Of a DNA stretch of 64,000 nucleotides, positions 1-64,000 are shown in pieces (position 1 is the stretch's first letter; each line of letters opens with the position of its first letter). The notes under the pieces were generated by a model. That model saw only the letters and a program-made list of their open reading frames with translations. It did no database searches and was not told where the DNA came from. Origin of the DNA: Candidatus Omnitrophota bacterium (GTDB lineage Bacteria; Omnitrophota; Gorgyraeia; Duberdicusellales; 4484-171); the NCBI GenBank assembly GCA_021735655.1, contig JAIPGM010000001.1, positions 96,001-160,000 on the forward strand, in the 5' to 3' direction. A program made the translations under genes and the position numbers.

Positions 1-1
1 T

Positions 2-3000
2 GGAAAACTGTATTTATATATGATTTATGAGATAAAAGACGATGGTAAATATTATTTGAAGAAATCACCGGTTGATTTAAAGGATACAAAAGTCGTAACT
101 ATCGGCTATGAGCTTATTTCTACTGAGATTGATTCAGATATTAATATAGTAATTGATCAAGCTACTAAGAAACCGAGCACCCAATTTGCTCCGATTGTTG
201 CTGCTAATGATAAAGAAGTAGCAATCCTGGTTAACGGTGATGAACTAGTCGTTTTAGACCGAAAGAAAGGTAAAGAAACTGCCTACGGCTATGTTAAAGA
301 TAAAAAATTCTACCTTTATGCATCAATTGATGTGCTTAAGGCAATCGAAGCCGGTCGATTTTTAGAGACCAAACAAGTTGATCAGAACCTTAAACCGGTT
401 AAAGATCCGGCCACCGGAGAAGAGATAGTTGAAAAAGTACCAGTAGTTGCTGCAGATAAAACAATTGCCGTTATCTTAATTGAGAAAGAAGCCCCGGGCA
501 TTGAGAATTCACACACACTTAATGCTTTAAGCAAGGCTACTGGTAGAAAAGCACGCTACGGCTATAAAGACTTAGCCGATGATAGTCTTTATTTATTTGA
601 TTTAGTTGAAAAGATCAAGGTTGTTCAAGCTGGTCAAAGCTTAACTACTATTAAAATTGATGAAAAAGTCAATACGCTTAGTACTGAAACATTACCAGTA
701 GTTGCCTCTAATGATGCGGAAGTCGTCATTCTGATCGACAAAGAAGCGCCGGGTTATCCAAATACTAAAACTCTTAATCTTATAAATAGAGAAACCGGTT
801 TAGTCACTCGCTACGGCTATAAAGAGTTAGATGATAATAGTCTTTGGTTGTTTGATTCAATTGAAGCACTTAAAGCTGTCCAGGCCGATCAAAGCTTAAC
901 TACCACTAAGATTGACAAAAAGATAGGCACGCTTGAAACTAAAGAAGTACCAGTAGTTGCTGCTAATGATAAGGTGGCGGTAATCTTAATTGATCGACCA
1001 GCTCCTGACTATGAAAATTCAAAAACTCTTAATGTTATAAGCAAGGATAATGGTAGAAAAGTACGCTACGGTTATAAAGATTTGAGTGATGATAGCCTTT
1101 ATCTATTTGATTTGATTGAAACATTCCAAGCTCTTCGAGGACCAGGAACTTTAACTACTACCAAGATTGATAAAAAGGTAGGCACACTTGATACTGAAAC
1201 AATAACTGTAGTTGCTTCTAATGGTTCAGAGGTAGTAATTAATCCAATTGGCGATAAGCTTGTTTCATTAGACAAATCTTCAGGCCGAAAAATCTATTGG
1301 GGTCATCAAAATAGATTTGGAATGTTTTTATTCTCAATGCAAGATTTAACTTTAGTTAACGTTGGCGATCCTTTAACTGGAAGAAAGATTGATCAAAATG
1401 TAAATAGCACACCGGTAAGTGCAAAAGTAGTGGCTACTGACCATTCTAACCGAATAGTTATTTTAGTAAACGGAAATGAGCTTAATACCTTAGATGCTCT
1501 CGGTGAGGTTAGAAGTGATGGTTATGGAGAGATGGATAAAAACGGCGATTTATTTTTATATGGCACAGAGTTATTGAATGCAAGGCCAGGCCAGATTATC
1601 CCAATCTATCCGATTGATCCAGATACTGTTGAGGCCGATAAAGCTAGAGGGGCCAAGGTAATACTTAAGATTAGAGGGGTAGTTGGGGTGGATGGTGTTA
1701 CTACCAAAGCCGTTTGGTTTGAAGTTTATGAGGCTAAGAATTATGATGCTACTACCAAAACATTTACCGGCCAACCAGAATCAAGTGAAATCCATTTAAT
1801 TGAAGCTGGCTCTAAGCCGAAAAAACTATATCTAAAAGACGATAAAATAACCCTAGAAGACCTTTGGTCAGTAGATCGGGCTGATTTTGGCAATCGCCAT
1901 ATTGCTACTGTGGCTGTTGATAAAGATAATTTTGGTGAAGTTGCCAAGGCGATTTTAACTGGCAAAATTGATACCTTAGAAAAATCAGGCGTAACTATTA
2001 TGGTCCGTGAAAGAAGCGATAGCGCTATCTGGTTTGACGTATTTAATGAAACCGGAAAGCGCCTTAGCAGCGAAATCCATATAAATGGCGACAGTCAAAC
2101 TTATATTGTTACCGGTAAAGACTCAAGCGCATTAATGTTGCTTGATGCAGAGGAAAATGCCGACAAAGATGGTTTTCGTAAAGTTTTTAAAATTAACTTA
2201 AGCTCTCCTGAGTCGTTAGAAAAAGTTGCTAAGGCTTTACGTGATCCGGAGAGTAAAGCTTTACTCGGAGAGGTAACTGGTACAATTGGAAAGGTATTTC
2301 ATGACAATGAGCATATAATTTTGTTTGCTTTTGACAGCGAAGGAAAGCTATCTCGAGGTTTACTCGAAGAGGTCGGTCCTACGGCAACTGATCAGCCGCT
2401 ACCGTTTAGAGTAAGAGATGGAACCATCAGAGTTCTTTGGGGAGAGGATGCTTCACAAACTGTAATCGTTGATGGATCGGAAATGCATTATTTAAAAGAA
2501 CGAGCAGTTGACGCTAAGGCTTTTGAGGCAAAGATAAGAGAAGCCACCACCTTTAAAGAAGTAAAAGATTTTCTTGATAATACTCCCGATACTGGTTTAG
2601 TCGCTTTAATCGTCAGCCAAGATATTATTTTTAAGGGAACCCCGGCAGTATTGAACCGGATATATATTCCCGGGTTATTACCTTTATACGAAGTAATTTC
2701 CAATACCGAAACTTCTAAAGTTTCTGAGTTTGAAGGTAAAGTTGAGGCTCGTTTTTATCCCTACACTCAGGAAAGAAAACTATTAGATCCTAGCCGAAAA
2801 GACCTTTTAACTGTTTCAGGGATGATGACCGTTGACGAAGGTCAAACCTTTAAAGATTTGCCAGTTGGATTACAGCAGACTCTTACTGATAAATATGGAC
2901 CAATTGCTCCGGATGCAGCGATAGTCCATCGTCACTTCTATAAGCAAGACGGTAATAAATACGATGAAGTACGTCAGCCCGGCGGTAGGGCTGATTCTTG

Positions 3001-6000
3001 GTTGCAAGGCTATGTTATCGAAGTTGACCATGCTATCGTTGTTGGTGGAAAAGAGTTACGCCAGGTAAATGGTAAGGATCTTAAATATACCATTGAGGTT
3101 GATAGAAAAGGTAATTTTGAAATCGCCCGCGTACATATTGATCATGTTGAATTGGCAACTATTGTTAAGGATCCAGAAAGCGGTAATATAGCTGCTATTT
3201 TTAAACCGGAAACCGGTCTTGTCCCCGATGAGGCCATACTTAGGATTGCTCAATATATTGACATAAATGGTATTGATTCATTTAATGTATCGGATAGTGA
3301 AAAGCAGAAAATAATTGTTGTTGCTAACGATATTTTAGAAAGAGATCTAAGGGCAGTGCCGATTACCGATGGCGAAAGAGAGCTAGTATCTCAGTTGATT
3401 TCGCGAATAAGTTTTCAGGCTGATTTTGTGGCTAAAAAATACTATAAGCTTGGTCAATTGCATAAAATTGTACTTGCGGAAAAACCACGAACAATTAGCG
3501 ATATCATTGGTTCTGTTGGTAATGATCCGATAGCCCGCGCTAAGATTGATAATAGACTTAAGGTGATTAGCCAAGGTTTAGGCCGACAGATGCCACGCGG
3601 CGGAGTAGCAGCGTTGACTATTACCCCTAGTTTGGTTTTACAGCTCAATGGGAATATTATGCGTGAGTATCGTTTTAAAGAAGATCGTTTAGCCAGGCTA
3701 ATTGCTTTTGAACAAGGTCAGGAATTGGCAGTTAATGTAGCGTTTAATAACCGAGGTGATCCAGTTCAAACCTTTAAGCTTTCAAAAAGCGAGCATTCAG
3801 ACCGTCAGGTTGGCTCACAAGTAATTGCTTGGGGCCAAACTCCGATGGCCGAGCGTGATGGTGAAATTTCTGATGAAGCTGATAGCTCTGAAGCTAAAGT
3901 TATCTTTGAACAGGATATTCCGGAGACTGCTCGGGCATTTCAGGAATTTGCCGCTAGCTTGAAAGAGAAACATGGGGTAACGGTTACCGGAGATCTCTGG
4001 GAAGCGATGGGTAAAATGGGAATTGTTCCGTCAACCATGATTACTCGCAGCGTACTTTATGAATATCCGCATAGTGGTAATATTGGTTCAACCAGCTTTA
4101 CTTCACCGCTTATTGAAAATAACGGTAGGGTTGAGATTGATCCGCAATATCGTGATTCAACTAAACAGATTGAGATGCTTTTTGTGCCTAATGATCCGCA
4201 AGGCCGGACATTGGCAACTAGATTTATTACCGAAGAAGGGTATAACTGGGTTATTAATATGTGGGGGCTTAAGGGCACCGATGCCCCGTTAGGAGTTTTG
4301 CCGGCCAGCATAACTATTAAATATGAAAATGGTAAATATAGCGGTTATGAGTTTAGCCGCTTCAAGCAATCAATTAGCGGCGAAGAATTAAATGCTGAAT
4401 CAGGTTTGAATTTATATAGTGGCCTGCAGGCTTACGAATATGAAGTATTTAATTCCGCTGTTGTACGTAATGTAATTTATTCTTCACAGGCTCAACTTTT
4501 AGGCGAGCGTTATGCTTTTGTAACTGGCAGGCCGGCTAAGGAGATTTTAGGAACCTCAACTTTAAACAAACCAGCGGTTGAGACTTTGTTTTTTAATCCC
4601 AACTCATCTTTACGCAGCCCGGTCAGATCAGTGTTAACAGTTGAACAAGAGCTAGCTAATAAAATTATAATTCCTGAGATGATCGATGATCAACATTGGA
4701 TTACTCCGCCTGGCGAAACAGTGTTGATTCAAACCGATAAAGGCATTAAGCCGGCGGTTAGGGTTGTGGTTAAAGATCAATATAGCGTACGCTACGAAAT
4801 AGAAGAAGGTAAACAGATTACCTATATTGTTGCTTTAGAGAGTGAAGGTTCAGCAATCCATACTAGATTTTGGCAAGAGTCAAAATTCATCGGTGACAAA
4901 GCAATAACTAAATATCGCGTAAACATAACTGATGAGTGGAAGGCTGATTTAAAAGCTAGTGCAAAATATATAGCTTTTATGCCGCTTGTGCTTGCGGCAA
5001 TTGTGCTTTTAGGTTTTATTTTATCTAAGGTCGGCTTTACTCTAAGAAGGGCCTTGCAGCTTTTAGGATTAATCTTTGATGTCGTCATTAGACCGATACT
5101 TTTAATTCCTCATCTTTATAAAATATGGAAATACGGAAGCAGCAGTACCGGAGATTTCTTTAGACGTTGGCTTTGGCCGTTTGGCTTAAAGGAGTCTAAT
5201 CCTTATGTTCATGCTTATAAGGTTTGGCTAGCTATTAGCGGAAAAACCGACGAGAAATTTACTGAAGGCATTAACAACCCCGACACTACTGATACCACTG
5301 AAGCCGAGATTACTAAATTGTTTGAGGAGATGTATGAGTTCTCAGTTAAACTTAAAGACGCCCCTGATTTTGTATTGTATCTTGTTTGGAGAAAGAGGAT
5401 GGGGGCAACTGAAGCTGAAATGGAGGAGCATAAAGACATCTGGTTTGATATTATTGTAGCCAACCAGAACTTTACAAAAAAAAGCAAGGGTACAGTTACC
5501 ATGCAGCATCGTTTTCATTATGACGATCTTGGTAATTTGTTCAGAACCCGTAAGTTCATTGATCGTTATGAACAATACAGAGAAAGTGGAAATCTTGACC
5601 CTTACCGAAAGTATGTTGATTTATTAAACAGCGATCTTGGCGCTATCAACTTATCGCGCCGTCAGCTACTTGAAATAATCCACTATAGTGGCAGTTTAAT
5701 TAATTCATTAAAGTATAGGGGTCGACATTCTGAGTTTGGATTACCTAGCGAAGCAATACTTTGGAAAACATTTCGCACCCTTGACGGTGGACCTTCAGGA
5801 TTATTTGGTTGGTTGGGCATTGCTCGAATACTTTTCAGACAAGGCTCGATATTTGCTATAAGTTTCTTTGTATTCTTAGCTAAATACTTACCGTTAGCAA
5901 AAATTGTAGCCTTCCTTTTTAGTAATCCTTGGATTATCTTAGCTTTAATTGCTATTGCCCTTAGCTTAGGAATATATACTTATTTAAGAAGAAATTACGA

Positions 6001-9000
6001 CAAGGTAAGTCATATGGGTCCGGCCTCAAGAGCATTAGCTTATCCTTTTGTTTTAGTTGCTTCAATTGTTAGAAGCGTGTTGAATGCCTATACTTTAAGC
6101 ATAGCTGCCATATTTGCCGGTGGAGTATTAATGAATGATGCGGCAGCTTTCAGTGGTGTAACTGGGTTAGCTTCTTTTTCTGAGGCAGCTTTAGGTAGTT
6201 TAAAAGCAGTTTCCTTAAGTGATCCTTATGTATTAAGCTTTATATTGATGCTAGTTGCTTTGTTTGGGATATTTGGCTTTTTGGATAATATGATTTCAGT
6301 TAAATATAACCCAACCAAGAAAGAGTTCGGCTATGCACCTTTGAGAGACGCAAAGTGGTTTAGTGAAATTGTTTTTTCTGGTGGAATGATGTTGCTTACC
6401 TTTGGTATAAAATTTGTCCTAAACTACTTTACTTTTAAATTTGTAATGGTTCCAACTAGCAGTTATTTGGCGAGCTCTTATGCTCCGCCAGCTTGGGCTT
6501 TTAAAACATATTTGGCTATAATGGCTATTGTAATTGTTATTGTAATTACTGTAAAACTTGTTGCTTATATTAGAAAGCTTAATGCAGTTAGAAAGTCAGA
6601 TACGGGTAAAGTTATGGCAACAGTATGGAGTGATATCAAATCTTTAAAACTTGTTGCTTATGTTAGAAAGCTTAATGCAGTTAGAAAGTCGGATACGGGT
6701 TCAGTTATGGCAACAGTATGGAGTGATATCAGATCTTTAGGAAGAGGCGACATTGGCGATTGGATAGGATTTGCCTTTAAGTGGTTTAGTTTAATTGGCT
6801 TGCCTTTGTTGCTTTATTTCTATGGGCAAGTATTTTTAGTAATTGTCCTTTGGCTTCCTTTTGCTGCTTTTTATATACTGGATACTTTCTTTGTTTTCTA
6901 TATTTTAGAGGGTATAGCCGGATACTTGCGTGGCAGCTACCTTGGTTTAAACCGAATAAGGAATTGGCCGCAATTAGTGGCTAATTTTCCTCATTTAAAA
7001 CAGGCCATTAGGGCTAATTATGCTCATCGGGGAATTCGCAAGGCTGATGGGTCACGCCTAACTAAAGAAGAAAGAGACTCAATAGTTGAGGAGATTTGGA
7101 ATGGAATAATAGAGCATGTTTTTAAGGAGGATAGACTTTTCGAGGAAGAAAGGGATCGATATTCTTACACGGCTGATGGTGGTCCCAATCTCATAAAAGC
7201 ACCGGAAGAGGATGAGGCTTTCGATCGAATTATCTTTTTTGCAACTTCCATGTTCATGCATACACCGCGTATGCCCAAGACCTGGGCAGACTTACGTTCC
7301 CATGCTGTTGTTGATCCGGCTAATGATGAAGATGTCTTTTATAATTTTGAAGGGACAATTACTAGTTTAAATGAAGAAGCAAGGGTAGATCCTGACGATG
7401 ATTCTCTTCCCGGTGTACAGAAAACATTCTTGTGTTATGAGATTTATCTTTATTCTAACCAGTGGTTAAATTTTAAACGCCGAATGCAGGCCTCAGGAAA
7501 ATTCAGGAATACTGAAATTCAGGAGTTACAGAACATATACGATGCAGTTGTTAACGGAGACCTTACTTATAAATTAAAGTTAAAGGATGGAAGAAAGAGG
7601 CTAAGTAAAGCTTTGCAGGACGAAGTTCGTCTTTGGGCCTCTTATAGGTTCCAGCCGCTTATTCGAACTGTTCGGGGAATTGAATATCGTCGAGATGCTT
7701 TAAAGTTGATTGCTAATAGTGTTTATTTCAGGGGGCTTGGCTATACTGATGAGCAAATCAGAGAGGAAGTTAATAAGAAGTTTCGGTTTGTGCTTGGATA
7801 CCAAAGCTATGCTCGACAACAAGCGGATATGGTAAATCCAGAGAAGAAACTTTCAGAACGAATTGCAGCTAGATCTCGCGTAGAAGGCGTCAAAAAAATA
7901 ATGGAACTTTTCCCTGATATATTCGTTGCTAACTTAACTAAAGACGGAATATCAATTTGCATGCAAGGCGGCGAAGAAATAGGCAGCAAAAATGAGAAGG
8001 ATTTCTTTTGGTTAGGTCCTGAAGTTACTCAAGGTAAACCTGAACATCAAAAAGTTCTTTCAATCTGGGTTGATCACGACGGCGGTAATTATGATCATGT
8101 TGATACAGTGGATATGAACCAGGATGATTACTTTGAAGAAGCTTTAAAGCATCCGTTAGTCTTACAGGAGCATAGCCCTGATGTTGCTATTGTTGGTATT
8201 CCTGAGCATATTTTTACTGCTAGCTTTGGTAATGAGGGGAAACTGCTTGCCTTCTCTGATAGCACCTTTGCGAACATGGTTCAGAGGGTAATTGCTATGG
8301 GCGGTACACGTATGCATTATGGTCACCCGGATAGTTTCCGTAAACGATTTGCTAAACGTATGGGCTGGACAGCTTCTTCAAGCAAATTGAACGAAGATAT
8401 CTTTGCTGGATATCGGGCAATACGCTACGGTAAACGAATTAAGTTTATTGAATATCGCCGAGTCGGTAAGGCCCGTGAGGTTAAATTCGCGACTTCAGTA
8501 ATTTTATTTCAGAAATTCGGACGTGGTTCTGGTGAACAAGCTCATGATTTTATGTTATATGAACTTTATGAATGTCAGAACTTTGGTTTCACCAAAGGAA
8601 TGTTTTTCTTGATCAGCTCAATTGGTTTTTATATCAGGAAGCCGGCTGTTGTCTTAGCTGTCCAGGGTTACATCTTTACCTTAATCTTTATGGGTTTAAG
8701 TGGTTTTGTTTCTTTTCCTTTAGAAGCTTTTCTTGGAGTCTTGGGTGTTTTAGCTTCTCAGGGTATTGTGGCTACCGGTTGGTTTGAATTGATATTGCGC
8801 AAGGGCGTAATCCGAGGAACTTCTGATTTAATCGCGATGATGGCTACTGGAAATGTTCCTTTTTATATGGCTCATGTTTATACCAATGCTTTTGGGTTTT
8901 CTGAAGCTCAGGCCGGTATTGCTGGATACTTAGGAAGTGGTCGTGGACCGATGTTACATCATACTCCGATTTTCTATCCTAATTTTAAGTTAAGCTTATA

Positions 9001-12000
9001 TGGATTTTTAGAAGGAAAACAGCTTTCGAAAATGATGATTGTTAATATGGTATTTATTATAGCCGGTATAGTTATCTGGCAGAGTCCGCCGATTCTTTGG
9101 TCAGCCTTATTTATCTTGCTTCCTTTTGCGGCTTACTTTTATCCTAATATGTCTAACCCGGGAGCATTACCGATAGGCGTTACTGTCGGTAGATGGCTTG
9201 AGATATATAAATCTGATCTTTCTTTATGGCGCAAAACCATAGCTTCTGATAATCCTCTTTGGGAAGGTAAGAAATTAGACGTAGTGCTTCACGGAGCAAT
9301 ATTATTTCCTGTATTATTAATAGTCGGTGGTTTTATAGCTCTCTTTATTAAGTTACCGGTTACCGTAGGCCGTTGGTTAAATTCTCAATTTTCTGACCGA
9401 GGCCATGTAATCTCGACCTGGGCTATTAATTTGATTGGTGCGGTGTTTGGTGTGGTTTACTTAGCCAATATGTTGGTTGATAAATTACCTCAATTGGGCA
9501 ACATCATTGAAGCTTCACCGATGGCTGCGGCAATAGTTGCGGCTATAGTTATTGCTCGAGTCCTTCTTTACATTGGAAGTTACTTTTATAATTTGATCGC
9601 TGCCCGTTCTCATCAGGGAGTAAGTGAGGCAGTAGCGGCTTTAACTTTAGCTGGAATTATTCTTGCTGGGTTGAAGTGGGGTTTAGCGCTTAAGGCTTTA
9701 GTAGTTGGCTGGTTTAGCTGGTTACCAGCTTTGTTAGCTAGTCCGATTGGCCCTTGGGTTGCTGCAGTCTTATTGGTCCTTGCAGTCGCAGCAATTGTAA
9801 TTATTGCTTTACCGAGACGTATGCAAACTCATCCTACAGTACCGGCTTGGTTTGTTATTATGGGTGGTTTAGGTTTGCTACTAACAACATTAGGGGTACC
9901 AATAGTGATAAATACCCTTACTATATTTGCTGCGATTGCAGTGGGTTCGTTTGTTAATGGAATAGTTGCTCAGGATTTACCAAGAAAGGCTAAAGAGAAG
10001 AGATTAAAACGTAACCAAGCATTACCTTACCCGGCAACTATGCCAATAACTAATAAATTAGATCGTTCGCTTACTGAAAGTGAAAAAGAAAAAGTTATTT
10101 TAGCTTTTGGCGGAAGCGATGCCTTGGCAACTAATGGTATAGAGTTGAATGATCAAAATCTAGTAATGAGTCCGGCTCTTTCAGCTCCAGCTGAAGTAAG
10201 AGGCGGAGTTCTATATATAAATCCTAATACTTTAAGAGGTCCACCAGAACAGCTAAGAGTGATATTTGAAGGCCATGAATTAGCTCATTTTTTAGGAATG
10301 GATGAAATTCAAGCCAGACAATATACCATCGACTATCTTTTAGCGAATGGTTTACTTGAGAGCCACATTGCTTTCTTAGAGAATAATTCTATTGGTCTTG
10401 TAGCTGATCAGGAATGGTTAGAGGCTTTGAGCCAGAAATCAGTTTCTTTGGATAACGGAATTGAGCTTAAAGTTTATAAGTATAGGCCAGGAGTAAAAGT
10501 TGCTGTTGCTCAGATAGATCCGTCAATTTTACAGCCGCATATTTTAGTTTCCAGTGAGTTGGAAGGTAAGTTGCATTCGGTTGATCGTCGCTCTAACTAT
10601 GTATTGTATTATGATCATGAGACTGGCGAGCGTCTAGATAGCTTTCCTGAATCACGCCTAAAAGTATCTACGGTTACTAGTTTAATTGAAAGATTCCAGG
10701 ATCTTCATCCAGATTCACGAATAGAGATTATTACTGGTAACGAAAACCTTTTCTATAACAAGCCGATAGTTACAGTTATAGCCAATAAAGCTTACCATGC
10801 TGTCGGCGTTGACATAGAGAATCGTAATTATCCTATGCTTGTAATTTGGGCTGACGGTGCAGTAACTATCGAGGAAAGTGTTAGTTTCGAGTTTACTGAT
10901 TTTGATCAAAATGAAGTCAGAGTGTTGATTAATGGGAAAGAAGAAGATATACGCTATGCTACGGTTATCCAGTTAGTTTTAAATAAACAAGGTGTTGTTA
11001 ATCCGGGATCCCAGTTATATTTCTTTGATGATATCAAACATTTATTTGCGATGCCACGATTCAGCTCAGATGACTTTCCAGGAACTTTACCCAAGGGTTT
11101 GATGAGCGGAGCCATATTTTTTATGGCTGATCAACTTCTATCTGAAAATGCCCAGCGTGTAATCGACTATTACGATTCACAAAATCCAAAAACTGTTCAG
11201 GATTTTAATTTAACAAGCACCGTTTTTAGCAGAAGTGCCGATGGCCAAGATCGGGTAAGATTAATCAATATACCAGCAGAGTTATTAGAAGCTAGGTTGT
11301 TTGAAGCCGGATACTTACCTGATGACTATTCTATTGATCAAAGAAGAGGTGTAATTACTATAAAGCTTAGAGAAAATGTTTATCCTTTTCATATTATTGG
11401 AGTTACAAGTGATGGATTGGTGAAGGAGATAGTAGTTAATGGTAAATCTGGTAAGGTTGGTGTCACTGTAAGAGAAGCTGCCACTATTGCTCAAAAAGAG
11501 GGATTAATTAAGGCCGGAATAGTGGATCAAGGGATGACCGTTCGTTTAGATGTGGGTGATTTACGTTTTGGTAATGTTATAGTGGATAAACCTGGGCCTG
11601 AGAGGGCTAGTTCTTTAATCGTTTATACCCATATGCCTCTTGATAATGGTAAACAAAATAGACAATCGCCTCCCAGCGATGATAGATTAGGAGGAAGGGC
11701 TAGCCATAACGTGGCTGTGGCTGGTCCTGCTTCTAAGCCTTTGGATAATGGTCGACCAGGAAAGACCGAATGGAGCGATTTAATGAATCGCGTTGATCGG
11801 GTAAATGGCCTTAGGCAAGATGCACGAATAGCCGTAGTGCTTTATATAGTAGGAGTTGATCAAGAAATCGATGCCGGAACAAGAACAGCTCCTTTAACTG
11901 CCGGAGAACTACTGGTTAATGTTAATGGCGTAGGCCAGATAACTTCACGAAGAATTTTCCGAATAGTCGGTGAATTAAATCTTGCCGGAGTTACTTTAAC

Positions 12001-54000: not shown

Positions 54001-57000
54001 TAATCCTTTAGCGGAAGTTAGATCGCCTTATCTGCGTGATTTACTACTTGATATTTTAGGTAAGATGACTGAGCGTGTTAGTTTCATTGATGAAAGTACC
54101 CGAAGGCTTGTTCAACGTAAGATGCGTGGTTATGTTAATTTAGTAGTTTCCGATAAGTTTTTATTGAGAGATTTTACTGAATCGACAGATTTATTTTCAA
54201 AGCTCTTATCTTTAGATCCAGTATTAAAGGCTCGCTATGAGTTTAATCAGTATTTTTTCGATCACGGAACCCCGGGTTTTATGGAGCTAATGTGCACATT
54301 AGTTTCAGCAATTACTCACTTGCCACAACTAGCTCAAGGTGATCCAGAGTTAATTGATGCAGTTCAGAGACTTTATGCGAATCGACCAGAGGTGTTCGGT
54401 AAAGATCCTGAACGCAAAGGTGAACTTATCTTAAAAAGTTTACGCCTTAATATGCCCAATCAGGTTATCGGAAGGAAACCGACTCCTTTAAGAGAGGCTG
54501 ACCTGCGACGTAGCGGAGTTTGGCTAGGTCGTCAAAAGCCGCTTGATAACGGAAAAGCAAAAGTAGTTTTAAAGCCAGGAAATATGGATTACCATTTAAG
54601 TGTGGCGCGGAATACTCATTTTAGCAATGCTGCTTCCAAAATTGTTCCTTGTTTTTTAGATAATTTAGCTAAGGCTCAAATCAAAGGAATGCATAAAGAA
54701 ATTAGTGCGGTATTAGTCCATGACGATCAGGGGAATATTCCGATTTTTGCCTCGGCTGATCGGGCCAAGCTAGATGGTTTTGCAATTAATCATTCTTTGA
54801 TTGCTCAGGCTTCTGGTATTCAAGTAGATAGAGGTTTTGCTCGAATTGTGCTCTTTTTTAGAGTTGAAGATGAAAAAGCCGATAGTGTAGCCATATTTCC
54901 TAATTCTTTTATAGATAAAACTGAGTTACTTAGTAAAGATTTAGACATAGCTTTTAGAGCCAAAGCTAAATTATTCGGTGATTTTTCAAAAATTGCTTTG
55001 TTAATTAAGGAAGTCTTTCTCCAGATGGGTTATACTCCAGAGTATATTGACACGATTTGGCTTTCTAATTTTGATGGCGGGGCTTTCGGGTTTAGTAATC
55101 CACGGAAAAAAGTTAAGACCTTTGGCGATGCTTTAGCTTTGATTGAGTTGATGACTACCTTAGAGACACAGATACCTTTAGATAATGGTCGTAAGACAAA
55201 TGATGATCAAGCTAAATCAGAGGGTGTCAGCCGTCGCGATTTCGAGATTAGATCTCTTCTCGGTGGGCTTTGTGCCTTTTGTGGTGGAAGCTTGCCGGAG
55301 TTTGCCGGTGCTGCGGCTGGTTCAGCGGCAAGCCTATCGGAAATTCAAGCTAGACTTAAGGTAATGAAGTTATTTGAACAAGGAGTCAGAGATTTATTAA
55401 TTAATGGAGGTATAGTTGCTCGGCCAGCTTTTATCAGTCCAGCTGAGTGGGGTATTTTGAATTTTGATCTTTACCGTTTTAATTTAGTCCAAGTTATGGA
55501 TGATTGTGGTGGTTCTATGAATGCTGCCGAGCGGGTTGCTCAAGGGGTTAGAGACTTTGCCCAATACGTTAATGATCCGCGACTACAAAGATATTTTTCA
55601 CAGCAAGCTCGAGAGAAATTAGTTCAGCAGAGAAAGGATAACAGCCAAATTAGAAGAGAAATAGCTGATATCAAGATTTTACTTGAAATAGCTCGAGACG
55701 CCTACCATCACATGAGTTCGCCGGTAGATTTACCGGGAATAGTTAAGCAATTAGAATTTGAGTTATTTCTTAAAAGAGGGCAAGTCGGTTTTAATTCGGC
55801 TAGTGTTAAGTTGGAAGCTTTGTTGGTAGATAAAAATGATGAGCCTTTGGATAACGGAAGAACTATTGACCAGCAAAAAACTATTCTAAGGGAGCAGGTA
55901 CCGAGTCTTAGCGATAGAGCTCACTCAGCTAAACTCGCCGCAATTTATTCAAATCGTTTAAATGCTAAATTATCTGACAAAGGTTGGGGTATGCCCGGTG
56001 ATCTTAGGTTAGTTAAGGGAATAACCCTAACCGTAAACAGAGTTATTGCTCCTTGTTATGAGCTGTTTTTAAATATTATGCGTCACGGAAGGGGTGGAGA
56101 ATTTAAGGCGGATTATCGTCAAGGTTGGCTGGGTGAAAAAGAATTAACGGTTGTTGGTTTTGACCAGGGTTTGGGTATTGCTAATCCGGATCAGCTTTTC
56201 GCTGATAAGTTAGAGCTACTAGCTATTGCTGAAGATACAGCTGATTTAGACAAGAGGGAATTAAGTCGAGGAATTGTTCATATCGTGCTTGATCCGGACA
56301 GCGTGATGCTTGAAACCAGAGGCATAAGGTGGGCTAGGTCAATATTAGATGTTGAAGTTCGTTCAGGATTGTTTATGCCGGTAGTTACTTTGCAGCCGAG
56401 AGGCAAAAGTGAGGTTAATAAAGGTTTACGTTGGACTTTGGGATGGAAGAGGCAAGCCAGTCCTTTAGACAACGGCAGACAATCTCTGATTCCGGCTTTA
56501 GCTGCTGCTGAGCATATACCTTATGGAGAAGTAATCACAAAAATACTTGTAGTTTCAGGAATGATAATGATAGCTGTAGTAATGCTTAACTTTTTTTATA
56601 TAGTAGTTCGTATACTAATTGTCGAAGTAAATGATTTGATAAAACGATCCAGAAAGAAAACTAAGCCTAAGGGTCTATCGGCCTATGCTCGTTCAATGGG
56701 ATTATATTTTTTAAGACAAAGATCATCTGGCCTAGATAAATATTATGTCAAAGGGTCTTTCTCGCGTTTCTTTAGTGTAGATACTAATAAAAGAAAACCT
56801 AAATCTGGTCACGATAAACCGCTCGATAACGGAAAAGATAAAGACCAGAGTCCAGACAAGCGTATTCCGATAGCAAAATTATTACCACAGTTACTTAAAC
56901 AATCCCAGGCTGAGCTGTCTCAAGGTCCGCCTCATACAATTAGCCAAACCAGTGAAATATTAATGCGAGTTGGCGAGCTAACAGTGTCACTTAGCTACCT

Positions 57001-60000
57001 AAGAAGACAGTTAGGTATATATTTAAGAGCTAATCCTTCAGTTGAGATAACTCATAATATTTCTTCCGGTGGTTCAGTTCGTAATCACAGTGGTTTACTC
57101 CCTGGAGAAACCTTAATTGAGGTAAGGACCGCTGGGCGACCGACTAGATTAGTAAAAGTAATTCGGGTTGGTAGTTTTGGTTCAGAGATTGGCCTAAAAA
57201 GTCCTAGGCTCAGAGAATGGATAAATTCCCGATATCAAGAGTTAGCTGAGTTTGTAAACTTGGGCGATGAGTTTGAATGGAGAACTAAGAATGGTAGGCC
57301 GCGTTTGCCCGGTGATTTGTATCCGGGTTATGAAATTTTAGGATATCGAATGCTTAAAGATGGAAGGACCAGCGCTGATTTTATATTTATTTTTGAAAGA
57401 CAAAGCTCTAAGAAATTGAGAGGAGATGAAGGGTTAGTTAGATTAATGGTTTCTAATCCTAAGAACCTAAATCGACCGGTATACTTGGGAATGATTTGTC
57501 GCGATCCGAGATTTTTTGAATTAGCTGAGCGACTAACGACTGGTGTAACCCTTAGCGATATAGTAGCGACCCCTAAGGGTGAACCGCTTGATAACGGAAA
57601 GAATAACCCTTATTCTGATGCTGAAATCGAAGCTATGACTGCCCAGATAGCTCCTCAAGGTTTAGCTGAGTGGGATGAACAGATAGCGAGTTTAAGCTTA
57701 GCCGCTGAGAGTTTCTTGGAAACTGAAAAAGCAGTAAGAGATCATTTGGCGATGCTTAATCAACGCTTTGGTCCATTGGGAATTCGTTTCACTGCCACCC
57801 AGGTGGGTTTAGTTGCAATTATGAGTAAACCAGCAGATCTGGAACATAGTGATGCTTTACAGGAAGAGGTATTCCGTTACTATGAATTGGCTGAAGAAGC
57901 TAAACGGGCTCAAACTAACTGTCAGCAATGTCATAATAATTTATTAAATAGTTTTAGTGGTATTTTAGAACCGGCCATTAGTATGGCGGTTACCATCAGC
58001 CGGAGCCAAAATCGACCAGCTCAGTTTAATCAGCTTAGGAGTGCGATTATTGTTTCTCAAGAGCGTTGGCAGGCAGCTAAAGAAATTGAAAAAAGCTTAG
58101 CAGCTGTTGTTTTTGAGGGAGCATCTATCCATCTTCCGGAAACAATTCTTCCTCAAGGAGTAAGCTCTGAGGAAGCTGAGCGGTTGTTTAAAGATGTGTT
58201 CATCGATATTAAATCACCTTATCTAAGATTACGATTGATATCGCTTGATTTATACTTTTTATTGTTTCGTTTAGCTATCGGTACAATTGAACCAGTTCTT
58301 GGTTACAATCGGGCTTTAAGTTTAGCCCAGCGTGCGGCCACCCTTGAGAAACTTAACGAAAGACTTCTTCCAGAAAATCGCGGGGTTAGAGGAATACATC
58401 AGATTTTTGAATCAGCTAACGGCAATTTAGGTGAAATCAGAGCAATTATTGCTGAACGCCAAAGTCGGATAGTAGCAATTGATCAGCCAGCTGACTTATT
58501 AGCTTTAGATATTTTAGTTGCGCGAATTGAAGATGATTGTGTTTTAATGCAACGGGCTTTAAGTCTTGATAAAAGAGAAGCGCTACCGACTCTTGCACGT
58601 AGATTATTAAAATTAGCTGCTGATATTAAAGCACAGCGTCAAAGCACTCCGGTGGGTGCTGTATTCTCGGCACTTTTACCTAAGAACTCCCAGGGTAAAC
58701 AGAAAGAATCACCGACTAAACAGAATGCTTTTATTGTTGTTACCATGAGTGCTAACCAAGCTCCGATGGTTCACATTACTAATAAGCCGGCTGGTTTGCT
58801 GGATAATGAAGTTGGTCGGATTGCCTTTAGAGCCCTTGATTGTTTTAGTTGGCAAGATTTAGAAATTAGTGAAGGGGTTGATCGACTTAATTTATTAGGC
58901 GCACTTGGTCCGCTTAGTTATGGAATAACTCGTGAGCTTCGTCAGAAAGGTCTATTTATGTTAACCGGCGAGATATACAATTTGTTAAAAACGATAAGAA
59001 ATTTAGGCCGGGTTAAATTAATTATTCTTCCGAATCAAACAGCTCAACCTCAGGCAATACTTGATCTTGAGAGAACTTTAGAATTAGCTGATAGTCCTTT
59101 AGATAACGGCCGACCTTTGTCAGTTTATGAAGCAAATAAAAGGTTTTTTATGGCTTTGGGAGAATTAGTTCAGTGGCAACAAAGTTCACCAAAAAATTAC
59201 TGGTTTAAAAATACTGACCAGTTTTTGCAAGACTTGGCTGGTTTTCGTGAAAGATTTGAGGAATTAGTTGGTCAACCTCAGCTTGGAGAATTTCCTCAGT
59301 CATTAACTTCTTTGCTTGAAACCAATGAGAGGGTGGTGGGTGTTTTTCGTTACCAGTTTTATGCCGAAATTGAAGAGTGGCGAGATGAAGTTCTAGCTGT
59401 TCTCACCAATTTAGAAGCCGATAGCGGATATCTGTTTGAGGCAGTAACCGAATTAAAAGAGTTAGTTTCAATACACAAAGATAGTATTCTTCATTTTCAA
59501 ACCTTTATTGAGAATATAGCTAAAATTCAGAGTACTATAATTTCAGAGATAATGAGAAGGTTAATTCAAGTTGATGAGCGGCTCGATCAGTTACTTGAAC
59601 AAATTGAACAAGAAGGTTCAGAAGTTAGCCAAATTTTAACTGAGCTATCTGAGGTATTTTCTGATATATATGGTTTACATTTTGAAGTTTGTATAACTAC
59701 AGCTAGTCGTTATCTTACAAAAGGTAACGATTTAGTTAAGGAAATATTTCAATATTTTCTTGATAGATTAGATGAGGCGAAACCGCTTGATAATGGCCGA
59801 AGACCTAGGCGGCGTTCAGATAAAGGTGAAAGTAAGTGGGATATTTTAGATCGGTTTAGCCAAAAACTCAGAACTGTGGATACGGAAGTATTAGCGGACG
59901 TAGACCAACAAAGAAGCATTGGAGCTAAGAGAAGAATTTTAACTAGAATCGGTATAGATGAAGCTAGCCAATTAGACGGAGCTTTCTTGCTAGGCGCAGT

Positions 60001-63000
60001 TAGCAAAGCCTTAAAGCGCCAGGTTGGAAATTTAAGCCATGATTCAAGCCCGATTACCGTAACTGAGCCGCTTATTTATGCTGGAGTTGGTCGTTTTCTA
60101 ATTTGCTATAAAGATGAAAATATTGACGATGGCCTAGCAGTTAAAATTGCTAGCAGCGAAGCTTCTTTGCGTAATGCTGATCTTTATTCTTTAAACGGAG
60201 TCCGCATCGCCATTAATCGTTTAGGCACAGGCTTAGCTGCCAGCACAATGATTATTGATGCCCGTTGGCCAGAGGTTAGGTCTTTTGTTTTTAACGTTAT
60301 TGATCAAGCTGGACATCCTAGAAGGATTGAAACTCAAATCGCTATCGTCCAACAAAAAGTTTTACCGTTAATTGAGTATTTAAAACGTTTAGGTCGTCGA
60401 GGCTCTAAGGACCAAGATGTATTAAAGGCAATTACCTATGTTGATAAGTTTAAACAGCTTATAATTGCTATGTATAAACAAGGGGTTATTGATGATGATA
60501 CTTTTAATATTGTGGGAAATTACGGGATATTAAAGGTTAATGATAGTATTGTAATTTTTGATCTCGGTGATCTTTCTGATTCAGCTGATCGAGCTGCAGG
60601 TTTTGTTAGAAATTTAGATAGCTACAACCAACAGATGTTTGAAGCCTTTTTAGAAATAGACGGTGTTTTCCTTGATGAACGGATTGCCGATTATTTTATA
60701 AATAACCCGTTAAAAAGAGAAGATTTTATTTCTGGCCAAGGAGATCTATTCGGATCCGAATACGATCGGGAAAGTTCAAGAATGGTTTTCCCTTACGATG
60801 AGGAAACAGTAAGGATGTGGGGGGTTCGGGCTTTTGATTTAGTAAGCCCCGATACAGAGGCTAGCCAGCAACCACTCAATAATGGAAAAGCTAGGACTAT
60901 TTCTCGTTTTGAACAAGAAACTAGAACTGAGCCTTATCTTGTTCCTGAAGCTGAAGGCGTTGTATATCAAGCAGTGGCTAAATTTTTTAGAGCTAATGGA
61001 GATAGCCAGACATTTAGAGTTCTAGATCTTTTCAGTGGAGCCCATACCTATATACCGACCTTGAACCAAGTTCAGGTTGAAGAGTGTATTGGCGTAGGCA
61101 TAAGGGCGCAAGAGTTAGAATTGAATCCTAACTTAAAAGGTAACCCTAGCTACTTAGTTTTAGATTTAAATCAGGATAAGTTGCCTGAGCAGTGGAATCA
61201 GCGTTTTGATTTAGTCTTAGTGGTTAACGGGGTAGCTTACGTTGAGGATCATTTCAGATTATTTGCTGAGGCTGCAACTGTGACTAGACTCGGTGGCAGA
61301 TTATTAGTTGTTTTTACTACTGAAGCCTATTCTACCGAGATTTCAAAAACTTGGAAATATTTAGGTAGCGGTTCTTTAGGCCAGAGAAATAAAATTAGAC
61401 ATATTAGTGAATCAATAGCTAGAGTTCGCCAGTTTGGGCCTGTTGCCCATGGACATTTTACTTATACCATTCAACATGGCTTAGATATTTATGATAAGCC
61501 TTTAGAAATCATTACTGCGGTCAGAAAGAGTAGTGCTATTCCGCTCGATAACGGTAAAGTGCGTTTGCCGATAAGTCCTTTGAGGTTAGCTTCGTTAGTA
61601 ATAGTTCCCTGGTTTGCTATCGGATTATCGATTTATTTTGGTGATTGGTACGTTGATACAGTTAAATCATCGGATTTAAACGCAATGTTAGTTAAAGGGT
61701 TTTTAGGTGGTCTAGCTTGTGGTTTTGGGATGTATGTAAAGCAGACAATTAGTGGCCAAACCCTGAGCCGTAAAAATTTCGGAAAGATACTTCGTTGGAC
61801 TTTAGCCGGATCAATATATTTAGGTTTAATTGTTTTTGGTGCCTGGTATGGATTTTTGAAAGCTAATGTTCCCAGTGATGTTTGGAAGGTTATTTTAGAT
61901 ATAACTTTATTTTCAGCTTTCATCGGTTTACCGCTAAACTATTTAATTCAAAGATATATTGTTGACTATGACAGCTACCGTAAAAAAACAATTAAAAAGC
62001 ATATTGTTAATTATCTACGTCTTTGGATTTTTAATGCCAGCTGGTGGGGATTTTGGTTAGGCCTTTCTTGGTCACTTTGGCCGGATAGTATCGACCTTAT
62101 TGTGGCCAATGTAAGGATTATTTGGTCCGGCATATTTATTTATTATCTTAGTGAGTGGGTTGAATCTGGTTCAAGTAGTCTACAAGCGTCATCTAAACCA
62201 CTCGATAACGGCCATCAACCGCGTAAAATTATTTGGATTAATTTTGGTGGTTGGCGCGGCTATTGGTTTGCGGCAACCGGCATTGAAACTTTAGCCGGTT
62301 TTATTGAGAAAAATTATTCCGGCGAGTTAGAGCAGGAAGTTTTTTATTATAACCCTAGCCAGATTACTCAATTTAGCGAGCATCTAAGTCAGGCCTCAGC
62401 TGATTTTATTTGTTTTTCAGTTAATCCGATGTATTTTGATTTGGCTATGGATTTTGCTCAAGAGATTCAAGCTAGTTTAGAGGCTTCACCTAACACGAGA
62501 TTAGTTTTTGGTAACCGGGGAATATCTGGCAAGGAAGCAGCAATCCTAAAAGCTTTTCCTGAAGCTTTAGTAGTAACCAACGAAGGTGAAGAAGCTATGC
62601 TGGGAATTGTTAAAGGCGACGCCCGAGAGTCAATTCCTAATCTTTGGTATGTTGATCAAAACGGAGAAGCTAAATTTACTTATCCTCAGGTACTTTCGGC
62701 AGCTGATTACGTGGCTCCTTCTAAAAATATTCGCAAGATCAATGAACAGCCGCTTCCTTGGTATCAGGATGTTGGCTTTGTTGAGGGAACTCGTGATTGT
62801 TCAAAAGCTAGTTCGCGGCCTTGCACTTTTTGTGTGCATAGTTGTCGTCGAGCTCAGATACCAAAAAATCAATGGCGCTTGCTTAATGTTGCTGAGACTT
62901 TAAAGAGTATCGAGGCAGAAGTTAATTCCGGTAAAAGTACAATCAACATTGTAGCTGAAGATTTATTGGGTAGCGATCCAAAGCAAGTAGAACTTTTATT

Positions 63001-64000: not shown

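Follow-up and report, generated by a model that had tools for sequence, protein, structure and literature searches.

How does a bacterium use a reading frame that runs through 64 kb of DNA without a stop? The question is raised by the 64,000-nucleotide (nt) stretch analyzed here, hereafter the window, which comes from a Candidatus Omnitrophota bacterium (GenBank assembly GCA_021735655.1, contig JAIPGM010000001.1, positions 96,001 to 160,000 of the forward strand). Giant open reading frames (ORFs) of 20,000–147,000 codons, found in host-dependent, ultra-small bacteria, have only recently been recognised as a puzzle, and it is an open question, blocked by the lack of known cleavage points, whether their products are mega-proteins or are cut into pieces. 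The window supplies 53 precisely placed candidate cut points, copies of the hexapeptide PLDNG[K/R] that we refer to as linkers, which split the encoded chain into protein-sized units.

An initial annotation of the window proposed that frame +2 can be read from nt 2 to nt 64000. Retranslation in six frames (table 11) bore this out, as there are 0 stops in 21,333 codons. The other five frames contain 1,041–2,590 stops each, and their longest open stretches are 80–135 codons. With the stop frequency taken from the other two plus-strand frames, the probability of a stop-free frame of this length is ∼10^-990, in agreement with the earlier judgement that chance cannot explain it. It had also been noted correctly that the ORF track shows no long ORF. 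This is because just one ORF of at least 120 amino acids (aa) fits wholly inside the window (124 aa, minus strand).

2..64000, plus strand: single stop-free frame of 21,333 codons, open at both ends, the internal part of a giant gene (six-frame translation; uniform GC content at codon positions 1, 2 and 3; no other ORF above 124 aa)

The coding signature does not change along this frame. The window has a GC content of 40.1%, the values for the three codon positions (GC1/GC2/GC3) are ∼0.52/0.38/0.29 in each 6-kb bin, and the GC skew is above zero throughout. Such uniformity speaks against a chimera of genes from different genomes. No tRNA genes or Rfam families were found in the window, and it contains no marker genes. 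The longest DNA repeats are 198 nt at 66–76% identity, in addition to one 93-nt tandem duplication at 94%, and since long or near-identical repeats are thus missing, repeat-driven misassembly is unlikely. The functional heterogeneity of the modules described below could nevertheless raise the suspicion of an artefact, either an assembly chimera of unrelated genes or a sequence that is otherwise not one natural gene. A chimera would not, however, yield over 50 genes linked in frame by one and the same hexapeptide whose codons drift independently; uniform codon-position GC and the lack of repeats that could mislead an assembler also argue against it, as does a natural orthologous fragment in Tara Oceans data. 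We therefore consider an artefact highly improbable. The proposal of a single giant gene that extends beyond both ends of the window is supported by the zero stops, the uniform composition, the in-frame peptide motif and the complete enzyme domains. The earlier remark that giant genes occur in Omnitrophota matches the literature (ORFs of 39,678, 85,804 and 147,155 aa), and the domain repertoire of the window fits the published classes. These observations support the conclusion that the window covers 64 kb from the interior of one real giant gene, of the kind known from Omnitrophota.

A k-mer count of the chain gave a single outlier, PLDNG. The pattern PL[DN]NG occurs 53 times in frame +2 (50 PLDNG and 3 PLNNG), where composition predicts 0.015 copies, and 0 times in the other five frames. 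All 53 linkers of the initial annotation are thus real and lie in one frame. They do not span the full window; the first is found at aa 3879 (nt 11636), and aa 1–3878 contain none. The conservation of the peptide in frame +2 only is strong independent evidence that this frame is translated.

11636..62215, plus strand: 53 linkers of 18 nt each, starting at nt 11636, 11738, 12002, 12563, 12686, 13538, 15650, 16127, 18122, 18446, 22046, 22640, 23624, 24461, 25088, 25988, 26930, 27641, 28838, 30869, 31454, 31718, 32516, 33785, 34376, 35033, 36473, 36602, 37211, 39137, 39185, 41672, 41891, 43025, 45185, 46793, 46814, 49232, 50807, 50828, 52244, 52343, 54539, 55175, 55844, 56462, 56819, 57584, 59096, 59783, 60872, 61541 and 62198

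The sequence logo of the linkers reads P (53), L (53), D (50) or N (3), N (53), G (53) and then K (29), R (17) or another residue (7), which amounts to ∼23 bits over six positions. Asn and Gly are the same in all 53 copies, a non-basic residue occupies position 6 in 7 of them, and Pro follows the linker in 5. The flanks are unconserved, yet strongly hydrophilic from position -5 to +10. At the DNA level, by contrast, the copies differ widely. Four Pro, five Leu, two Asp, two Asn, four Gly and eight Lys/Arg codons are used, giving 40 distinct versions of the first 15 nt, and synonymous choices are independent between positions with the exception of Pro-Leu. This one association is a general codon-pair bias, as it is equal in Pro-Leu dipeptides outside the linkers. 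A near-invariant peptide combined with free synonymous variation indicates that each copy is kept by selection on the peptide, and such copy-by-copy selection speaks for recognition by a single shared factor more than for a simple flexible spacer.

Two origins of the linkers could be discarded. A DNA or RNA element, such as a recombination site, a ribosome-binding site or an RNA motif, is ruled out by the free synonymous variation, the lack of an Rfam family and the depletion of Shine-Dalgarno (SD)-like sites described below. The recent spread of a founder cassette is ruled out by the 40 DNA versions with independently varying sites.

Selection on a short peptide at every junction, with no conservation of DNA or RNA, is also the formal logic of viral 2A sites. 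The nascent hexapeptide could accordingly make the ribosome skip a bond (2A-like StopGo), or release the chain and resume, so that the modules would be separated co-translationally with no need for a protease. The motif, however, is unlike the 2A consensus D[VI]ExNPGP: NPGP is missing and the next residue is seldom Pro. Stalling peptides need conserved residues upstream, which are not seen here either, and 2A skipping is not known to work on bacterial ribosomes. We give this explanation very little credence.

Some linkers lie close together. The tandem double linker PLDNGR-V-PLDNGK-P is present twice, at nt 46793-46831 before a B12/radical-SAM (S-adenosylmethionine) module and at nt 50807-50845 before a FkbO/RidA module. 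Linkers also bracket short peptides of 10–37 aa, one of which is duplicated. This peptide, QNRQSPPSD…GRASH.VAV.GPASK, is found at nt 11636-11755 and 12563-12703, and the start of the module that follows, DV.RAEH.L.Q, is repeated at nt 12678-12738 and 15642-15702. With 85–91% DNA identity, these are local duplications that include linkers.

To see what lies between the linkers we identified families by searches of Pfam, NCBIfam and solved structures (PDB). The initial annotation had reported protein-family motifs along the full length, and family matches were indeed obtained across the whole frame. The chain consists of a linker-free part of at least 3,878 aa that is rich in transmembrane (TM)-like segments, followed by 52 segments and a last module, m53, that is cut off. 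The 52 internal segments comprise 44 modules of 82–1,194 aa (median 275) and 8 short spacers of 1–67 aa, so that the modules have the sizes of normal proteins. About 20 different families are present in the window with 1–3 copies each, and none dominates. The enzyme families are divergent yet clearly homologous to known ones, with scores under the NCBIfam equivalog cut-offs. The modules for which a feature could be assigned are as follows.

13556..15649, plus strand: m6, 698 aa, HAD phosphatase with intact DxDGT and a class I methyltransferase-like part (Pfam Hydrolase 6e-19, profile 2-188/191, beginning 10 aa past the linker)
16145..18121, plus strand: m8, 659 aa, full-length UDP-sugar pyrophosphorylase (PDB 9uml residues 15-561 of 600, E 6e-73)
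18464..22045, plus strand: m10, 1,194 aa, second copy of an HExxH mini-domain (nt 18515-18961) and a PtsI/PPDK-type phosphoenolpyruvate (PEP)-utilising C-domain (Pfam PEP-utilizers_C 3e-20; TIGR01417)
26006..26929, plus strand: m16, 308 aa, minimal histidine kinase core with H-box HDIGNH (Pfam HATPase_c, ending 4 aa before the next linker)
28856..30868, plus strand: m19, 671 aa, phosphofructokinase (PFK) with GGD, PKTIDxD and MGR motifs (Pfam PFK 5e-31; NCBIfam)
31736..32515, plus strand: m22, 260 aa, protein-L-isoaspartate O-methyltransferase (PCMT) with SAM motif VLEVGTGSG (Pfam PCMT 7e-22; NF001453 6e-28, profile 28-196/217)
32534..33784, plus strand: m23, 417 aa, twin-arginine translocation (Tat)-/lipoprotein-like signal (SRRSFGFMVTALGVGSFLTVC) beginning 2 aa past the linker (enrichment of [ST]RRxF after linkers)
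34394..35032, plus strand: m25, 213 aa, complete guanylate kinase with P-loop GVSGSGKT (Pfam 4e-15, profile 2-177/182; TIGR03263 3-174/180; PDB 1gky 3-176/187)
37229..39136, plus strand: m29, 636 aa, class II fructose-1,6-bisphosphatase (GlpX) and TPR (Pfam FBPase_glpX 2e-34, TPR; PDB 1ni9)
39203..41671, plus strand: m31, 823 aa, alpha-glucan phosphorylase-like, a weak match (Pfam Phosphorylase 3e-06, below cut-off; TIGR02094 2e-4)
46832..49231, plus strand: m37, 800 aa, OxsB-like B12-binding radical SAM enzyme with CxxxCxxC (Pfam Radical_SAM and B12-binding; PDB 5ul2 1e-32)
49250..50806, plus strand: m38, 519 aa, another radical SAM enzyme with CxxxCxxC (NCBIfam radical SAM matches at aa 16547-16664)
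50846..52243, plus strand: m40, 466 aa, FkbO/Hyg5-type chorismatase-like/RidA double domain (Pfam Ribonuc_L-PSP 6e-23; TIGR04444 1e-19; PDB 5ag3, 4bps)
52361..54538, plus strand: m42, 726 aa, second PFK, a paralogue of m19 (Pfam PFK 3e-33; paralogy; motifs)
60890..61540, plus strand: m51, 217 aa, class I methyltransferase-like, a weak match (Pfam Methyltransf_11 7e-4)
62216..64000, plus strand: m53, at least 595 aa, cut off by the window end, OxsB-like B12/radical-SAM paralogue of m37 (PDB 5ul2 2e-18; paralogy with m37, E 2e-26)

NUDIX and HATPase_c_2 gave weak matches in the chain, and about 30 modules are orphans. The linkers fall exclusively between domains: none of the 53 interrupts an annotated domain, against a random expectation of 12.9 (P = 4e-7). 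Moreover, the N- and C-termini of the homologues map 5–39 aa from linkers. The overhangs are 7 and 9 aa for guanylate kinase, 5 aa on the N-terminal side of PCMT, 10 aa for the HAD phosphatase and 16 aa for the UDP-sugar pyrophosphorylase, and the HATPase_c domain ends 4 aa short of its linker. As the homologue ends adjoin linkers, the units between them are whole proteins rather than domains of a single enzyme. Where we inspected them, the catalytic signatures are intact, namely the P-loop of guanylate kinase, the HAD DxDGT, the PCMT SAM motif, the H-box and G1 box of the kinase, CxxxCxxC in two radical-SAM modules and GGD/PKTIDxD/MGR in both PFKs. Judged from these sequences, many modules represent entire enzymes that belong to sugar-phosphate, nucleotide-sugar or regulatory metabolism.

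Three pairs of modules are paralogous at 25–30% identity: nt 27659-28837 and 41909-43024 (an orphan family with a weak PIG-L match), nt 28856-30868 and 52361-54538 (PFK), and nt 46832-49231 and 62216-64000 (B12/radical-SAM). They are old internal duplications of whole modules. The nearest solved structures of the glucan synthase (nt 6830-8692, see below) and of the UDP-sugar pyrophosphorylase (nt 16145-18121) come from eukaryote-typical families, FKS1/GSC2 and plant and protist enzymes, respectively. GlpX, the PtsI-like module, HisKA and the OxsB-like modules are typically bacterial.

Ordinary genes that happen to share a frame would be expected at their borders to carry signals of their own, and we observed none. 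Met is not enriched after linkers, SD-like sites at the junctions are depleted (1 vs 7.5 expected), and promoter- and terminator-like sites in the window do not exceed the shuffled expectation. On these grounds we reject separate translation of the modules, which are not separately expressed genes.

Given complete proteins in one chain, with a selected peptide at their borders, we suggest that the modules are translated as one polyprotein, which would then be cut at the PLDNG[K/R] sites by a dedicated endopeptidase. The cut bond would more likely be N|G or G|K/R than a trypsin-like one after K/R, because N and G are invariant while position 6 varies. We give about an even chance to this reading, that is, to a polyprotein processed at the linkers by a dedicated endopeptidase. 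Two further features are in line with it. Only three [ST]RRxF motifs are present in the whole chain, and two of them lie 2 and 12 aa past linkers (aa 10847 and 18410), an enrichment with P ∼0.008; both lead into a hydrophobic stretch. The two Tat-like stretches are found at nt 32534-32620 and 55193-55310, and the first has a Cys in a lipobox-like position. Tat-/lipoprotein-like signals right after linkers make sense only at a free N-terminus. In addition, the tandem linkers and the short bracketed peptides resemble, by analogy, what is typical of processed precursors. Taken further, the gene could be an “operon in one ORF,” in which more than 50 ordinary enzymes, some with export signals of their own, are made as one chain of more than 21,000 aa and then freed by cuts at a universal site of six residues. 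We hold this fuller picture tentatively, at somewhat less than an even chance.

Several observations weigh against processing. Cleavage of the chain is inferred, not observed directly. The Tat-like evidence comes from two cases, and TM-like segments right after linkers (4 vs 2 expected, P = 0.13) are not significantly enriched. Searches of Pfam and NCBIfam found no known peptidase family in the window. No other protein among 1.84 billion representatives carries the linker system, so the polyprotein reading has no comparative support, and the only orthologous fragment that we detected, P0006, is an internal piece open at both ends that spans no junction. The AlphaFold (AF2) model of the candidate peptidase domain described below, built from three sequences, has a pLDDT of 38 and is unusable. 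Finally, the published giants are mostly discussed as intact membrane-anchored proteins (bioRxiv 10.1101/2023.11.21.568195; bioRxiv 10.64898/2026.06.07.730766).

The main rival explanation leaves the chain uncut. It could be an intact, membrane-anchored mega-enzyme in which PLDNG[KR] is a non-cleaved docking peptide bound by a partner or scaffold domain, a chaperone or export handle, or a hinge formed by a type I' beta-turn at D-N-G-K. It is the published view of giants that they are intact and TM-anchored, no protease was found in the window, and conservation of the linker at the peptide level demands a reader of the motif, not cleavage. Furthermore, xNGK is a classic turn-forming sequence. 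A hinge, on the other hand, would not require an invariant sequence of six residues. Nor do tandem copies with a single residue between them, or bracketed peptides of 10–37 aa, have an obvious structural purpose in an intact enzyme, and the Tat-/lipoprotein-like signals after linkers would fail inside an intact chain. On balance we find an uncut chain rather unlikely, although it deserves serious consideration.

The strict invariance of N and G (53/53) also allows an explanation in terms of chemistry. No dipeptide is more prone to deamidation than Asn-Gly, and several autoprocessing systems cut their chains by Asn cyclisation. The linkers might thus act through their labile Asn-Gly, either via a succinimide that leads to deamidation and isoaspartate (isoAsp), a timer that would be read or repaired by the complete PCMT module of the same chain, or by self-cleavage through Asn cyclisation with no protease involved. 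However, NG outside the linkers is not avoided across the chain (observed/expected 1.12), and the spontaneous reaction mainly deamidates instead of cleaving the backbone. Known Asn-lyase sites need a folded context, whereas the linker flanks here are unconserved. The invariance of P and L would be left unexplained, and PCMT is a very common enzyme. We consider this explanation improbable. As a separate observation, the complete PCMT (an isoAsp repair enzyme, nt 31736-32515) resides in a chain with 53 exposed Asn-Gly sites, which is either coincidence or a functional link.

If the chain is processed as a polyprotein, it might encode its own protease. Only two HExxH motifs are found in the 21,333 aa, and both belong to one duplicated mini-domain of ∼90 aa (within aa 3343-3479 and 6172-6320), the second copy of which is part of m10.

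10028..10438, plus strand: HExxH domain copy 1, aa 3343-3479, with the pattern INPN.LRGPP...FE.HE..H..G.DE...H..FLENNS.G, an unconfirmed candidate zincin-type peptidase (36% identity to the m10 copy, E 1e-17)

The mini-domain has no Pfam match. Its FE.HE..H..G.DE is invariant in the Tara Oceans orthologue P0006. We regard the duplicated mini-domain as a candidate metallopeptidase and as a lead only.

In order to find relatives of the gene we searched protein, genome and metagenome databases. Module m10 is the only module with a detectable orthologue, the fragment P0006, to which it is 52% identical over 1,040 aa. P0006 is encoded on the Tara Oceans contig CEQE01322443.1 (3,085 nt, unclassified), which is from the mesopelagic, station 037, 0.22–1.6 µm fraction. 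A related lineage is thus present in mesopelagic sea water. A locus search guided by the alignment of m10 and P0006 gave no relatives in genome or metagenome contigs. Exact 50-mers of the window had no match in GTDB r232 representatives, JGI metagenome contigs or IMG/VR. In a word-indexed protein search, the orphan modules m12–m14 gave no match, and the sole match to m20–m25 was a distant PCMT, P0007, that has no linker.

To search for the linker itself, we built a profile from 47 linker contexts and ran hmmsearch against the 1.84 billion representative proteins mentioned above. It matched five proteins, all of which we rejected. One is an FN3 repeat protein in which TPLDNGT is part of the fold, two are tandem repeats unrelated to the linkers, and the last two are short, contain the motif twice and come from small contigs that are likewise unrelated. 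A degenerate DNA pattern of the double linker gave 81 loci in IMG/VR, which is chance level, and its only multi-copy case is a 9-aa tandem repeat. This locus (L066, IMGVR_UViG_GVMAG-M-3300027707-33_000001, minus strand, contig end) has KPLDNGEAA five times in a contig of a giant-virus metagenome-assembled genome with many stops around, and we judged it to be coincidental.

The part of the chain upstream of the first linker differs in character. With a TM-like segment defined as a 19-residue Kyte-Doolittle window of ≥1.6, a crude predictor that is not DeepTMHMM, the whole chain has 39 such segments, of which 24 are in the first 3,878 aa. The following features were found in this part.

2..11635, plus strand: m0, linker-free part, aa 1-3878, with 24 of the 39 TM-like hydrophobic segments (Kyte-Doolittle; first linker at aa 3879)
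71..1600, plus strand: six tandem copies of an 85-aa repeat domain, aa 24-533, of no confident family (autocorrelation peak at lag 85, YGY-anchored register, DNA repeat families D1 and D8, alignment)
6830..8692, plus strand: FKS1/GSC2-like 1,3-beta-glucan synthase catalytic region, aa 2277-2897 (Pfam Glucan_synthase 1.8e-55; PDB 7xe4/9lu8, E ∼1e-22)

The consensus of the 85-aa repeats contains the pieces LTTTKID, PVVAAND, VILI and RYGYKDL. Their sole family match is a weak one to FlaF_Ig-like, and they are possibly surface or adhesin-type repeats. The 93-nt (31-aa) tandem duplication lies in the TM-rich part at nt 6549-6734; it is in perfect register and is the only recent-looking duplication in the window. 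A degenerate, linker-like SLDNGI is found at nt 10445-10462, a few residues past HExxH copy 1 and within the linker-free part.

The linkers, which the initial annotation listed only in support of the frame, are the most informative feature of the window. With 53 defined points, structure prediction, annotation and proteomics become possible module by module, and the polyprotein hypothesis can be tested by looking for peptide termini at the motif. If the hypothesis is true, expression as a polyprotein, until now a viral hallmark, would be found in cellular metabolism as well, and the bacterial polyprotein would be on a scale not known even in viruses. Other giant ORFs of the Omnitrophota type may then be polyproteins as well, with lineage-specific punctuation that could be found by a scan for k-mer enrichment. 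If the motif instead serves for docking or as a hinge and is left uncut, it would nonetheless represent a new principle by which mega-enzymes are organised.

How does the chain compare with known systems? In function, viral polyproteins and MARTX toxins come closest. The polyproteins of picornaviruses and potyviruses and the pp1ab of nidoviruses belong to eukaryotic RNA viruses, have 2,000–7,000 aa with ∼10–16 sites and are cut by a cis-encoded protease. The chain described here is similar in that many complete proteins share one ORF with no internal starts, and in having a short repeated recognition peptide in exposed inter-domain stretches. It differs in being cellular and bacterial-type, in its length of more than 21,000 aa with at least 53 sites, and in that we infer both cleavage and the protease.

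The MARTX toxins of Vibrio and related bacteria (3,500–5,300 aa) carry up to ∼5 effectors and a C80 cysteine protease domain that cuts after Leu. Like the chain described here, they have a repeat- or membrane-interacting part followed by a string of unrelated modules, and the MARTX effectors are released by inter-module cleavage. A C80 domain and glycine-rich RTX-type repeats were not found in the window by Pfam and NCBIfam, a MARTX-type cleavage site was not seen either, and the modules here are metabolic enzymes, not toxins.

Other possible precedents concern the site itself. Legumain, an asparaginyl endopeptidase (AEP), cuts Asn|Gly in cyclotide precursors, and C39 peptidases cut double-glycine leaders. 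The invariant Asn-Gly of the linkers is as in AEP sites; a C13 domain was not found in the window. For double-glycine leaders, Gly at -1 and Leu at -4 of a putative G|K cut would fit, but -2 is the invariant Asn and -7 and -12 are not hydrophobic, so that the signature is a different one. P-L-D-N-G-[K/R] likewise departs from the 2A consensus D[V/I]ExNPG|P. C39 domains have been reported in giant ORFs (bioRxiv 10.1101/2023.11.21.568195).

The closest likeness is to the Omnitrophota giants, whose type example has 39,678 aa and comes from Ca. Velamenicoccus archaeovorus. Most Velamenicoccia genomes contain ORFs of more than 20 kb (PMC10066038). West-Roberts et al. (2023, bioRxiv 10.1101/2023.11.21.568195) described ORFs of up to 85,804 aa, including “Archaeovorins” that are rich in glycosyltransferases, methyltransferases, NUDIX, TPR, PPDK and glycolytic domains, and were kept from splitting the giant proteins by missing information on cleavage points. 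Nielsen and Lui (2026, bioRxiv 10.64898/2026.06.07.730766) reported ORFs of up to 147,155 aa, among them class 1 “multi-enzyme metabolic clusters” in which the commonest Pfams include methyltransferase, HATPase_c, HAD and radical SAM. With at least 21,333 codons the gene exceeds the ≥10,000 aa that define “large”; the “giant” of West-Roberts et al. starts at ≥30,000 aa. Divergent SecA_DEAD/SecA preprotein-binding domains and a C39 or S8 peptidase close to the N-terminus are typical of full-length giants; such domains were not found in the window at E ≤0.001 (≤0.1 for nt 2-30001), and the gene runs past both window ends. The word “linker” does not occur in either giant-gene preprint, “motif” is absent from the 2026 preprint, the one text searched for that term, and PMC10066038 contains neither “linker” nor “polyprotein.” A uniform hexapeptide at each junction is present here and is described in neither preprint. 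In other respects the resemblance is close. Both have an ORF of more than 20,000 codons, many TM segments, a mosaic of divergent enzyme domains with TPR, and little DNA repetition. Glycosyltransferase, methyltransferase, HAD, NUDIX, HATPase_c, radical-SAM, PPDK-type PEP-utilising, FBPase and sugar-phosphate enzyme domains are common to both, and the few close relatives of the window match the 80% singleton clusters reported for the giants. Taken together, we conclude that the gene belongs to a known rare kind and that, within the literature and databases searched, the PLDNG[K/R] punctuation between its complete proteins is newly described here.

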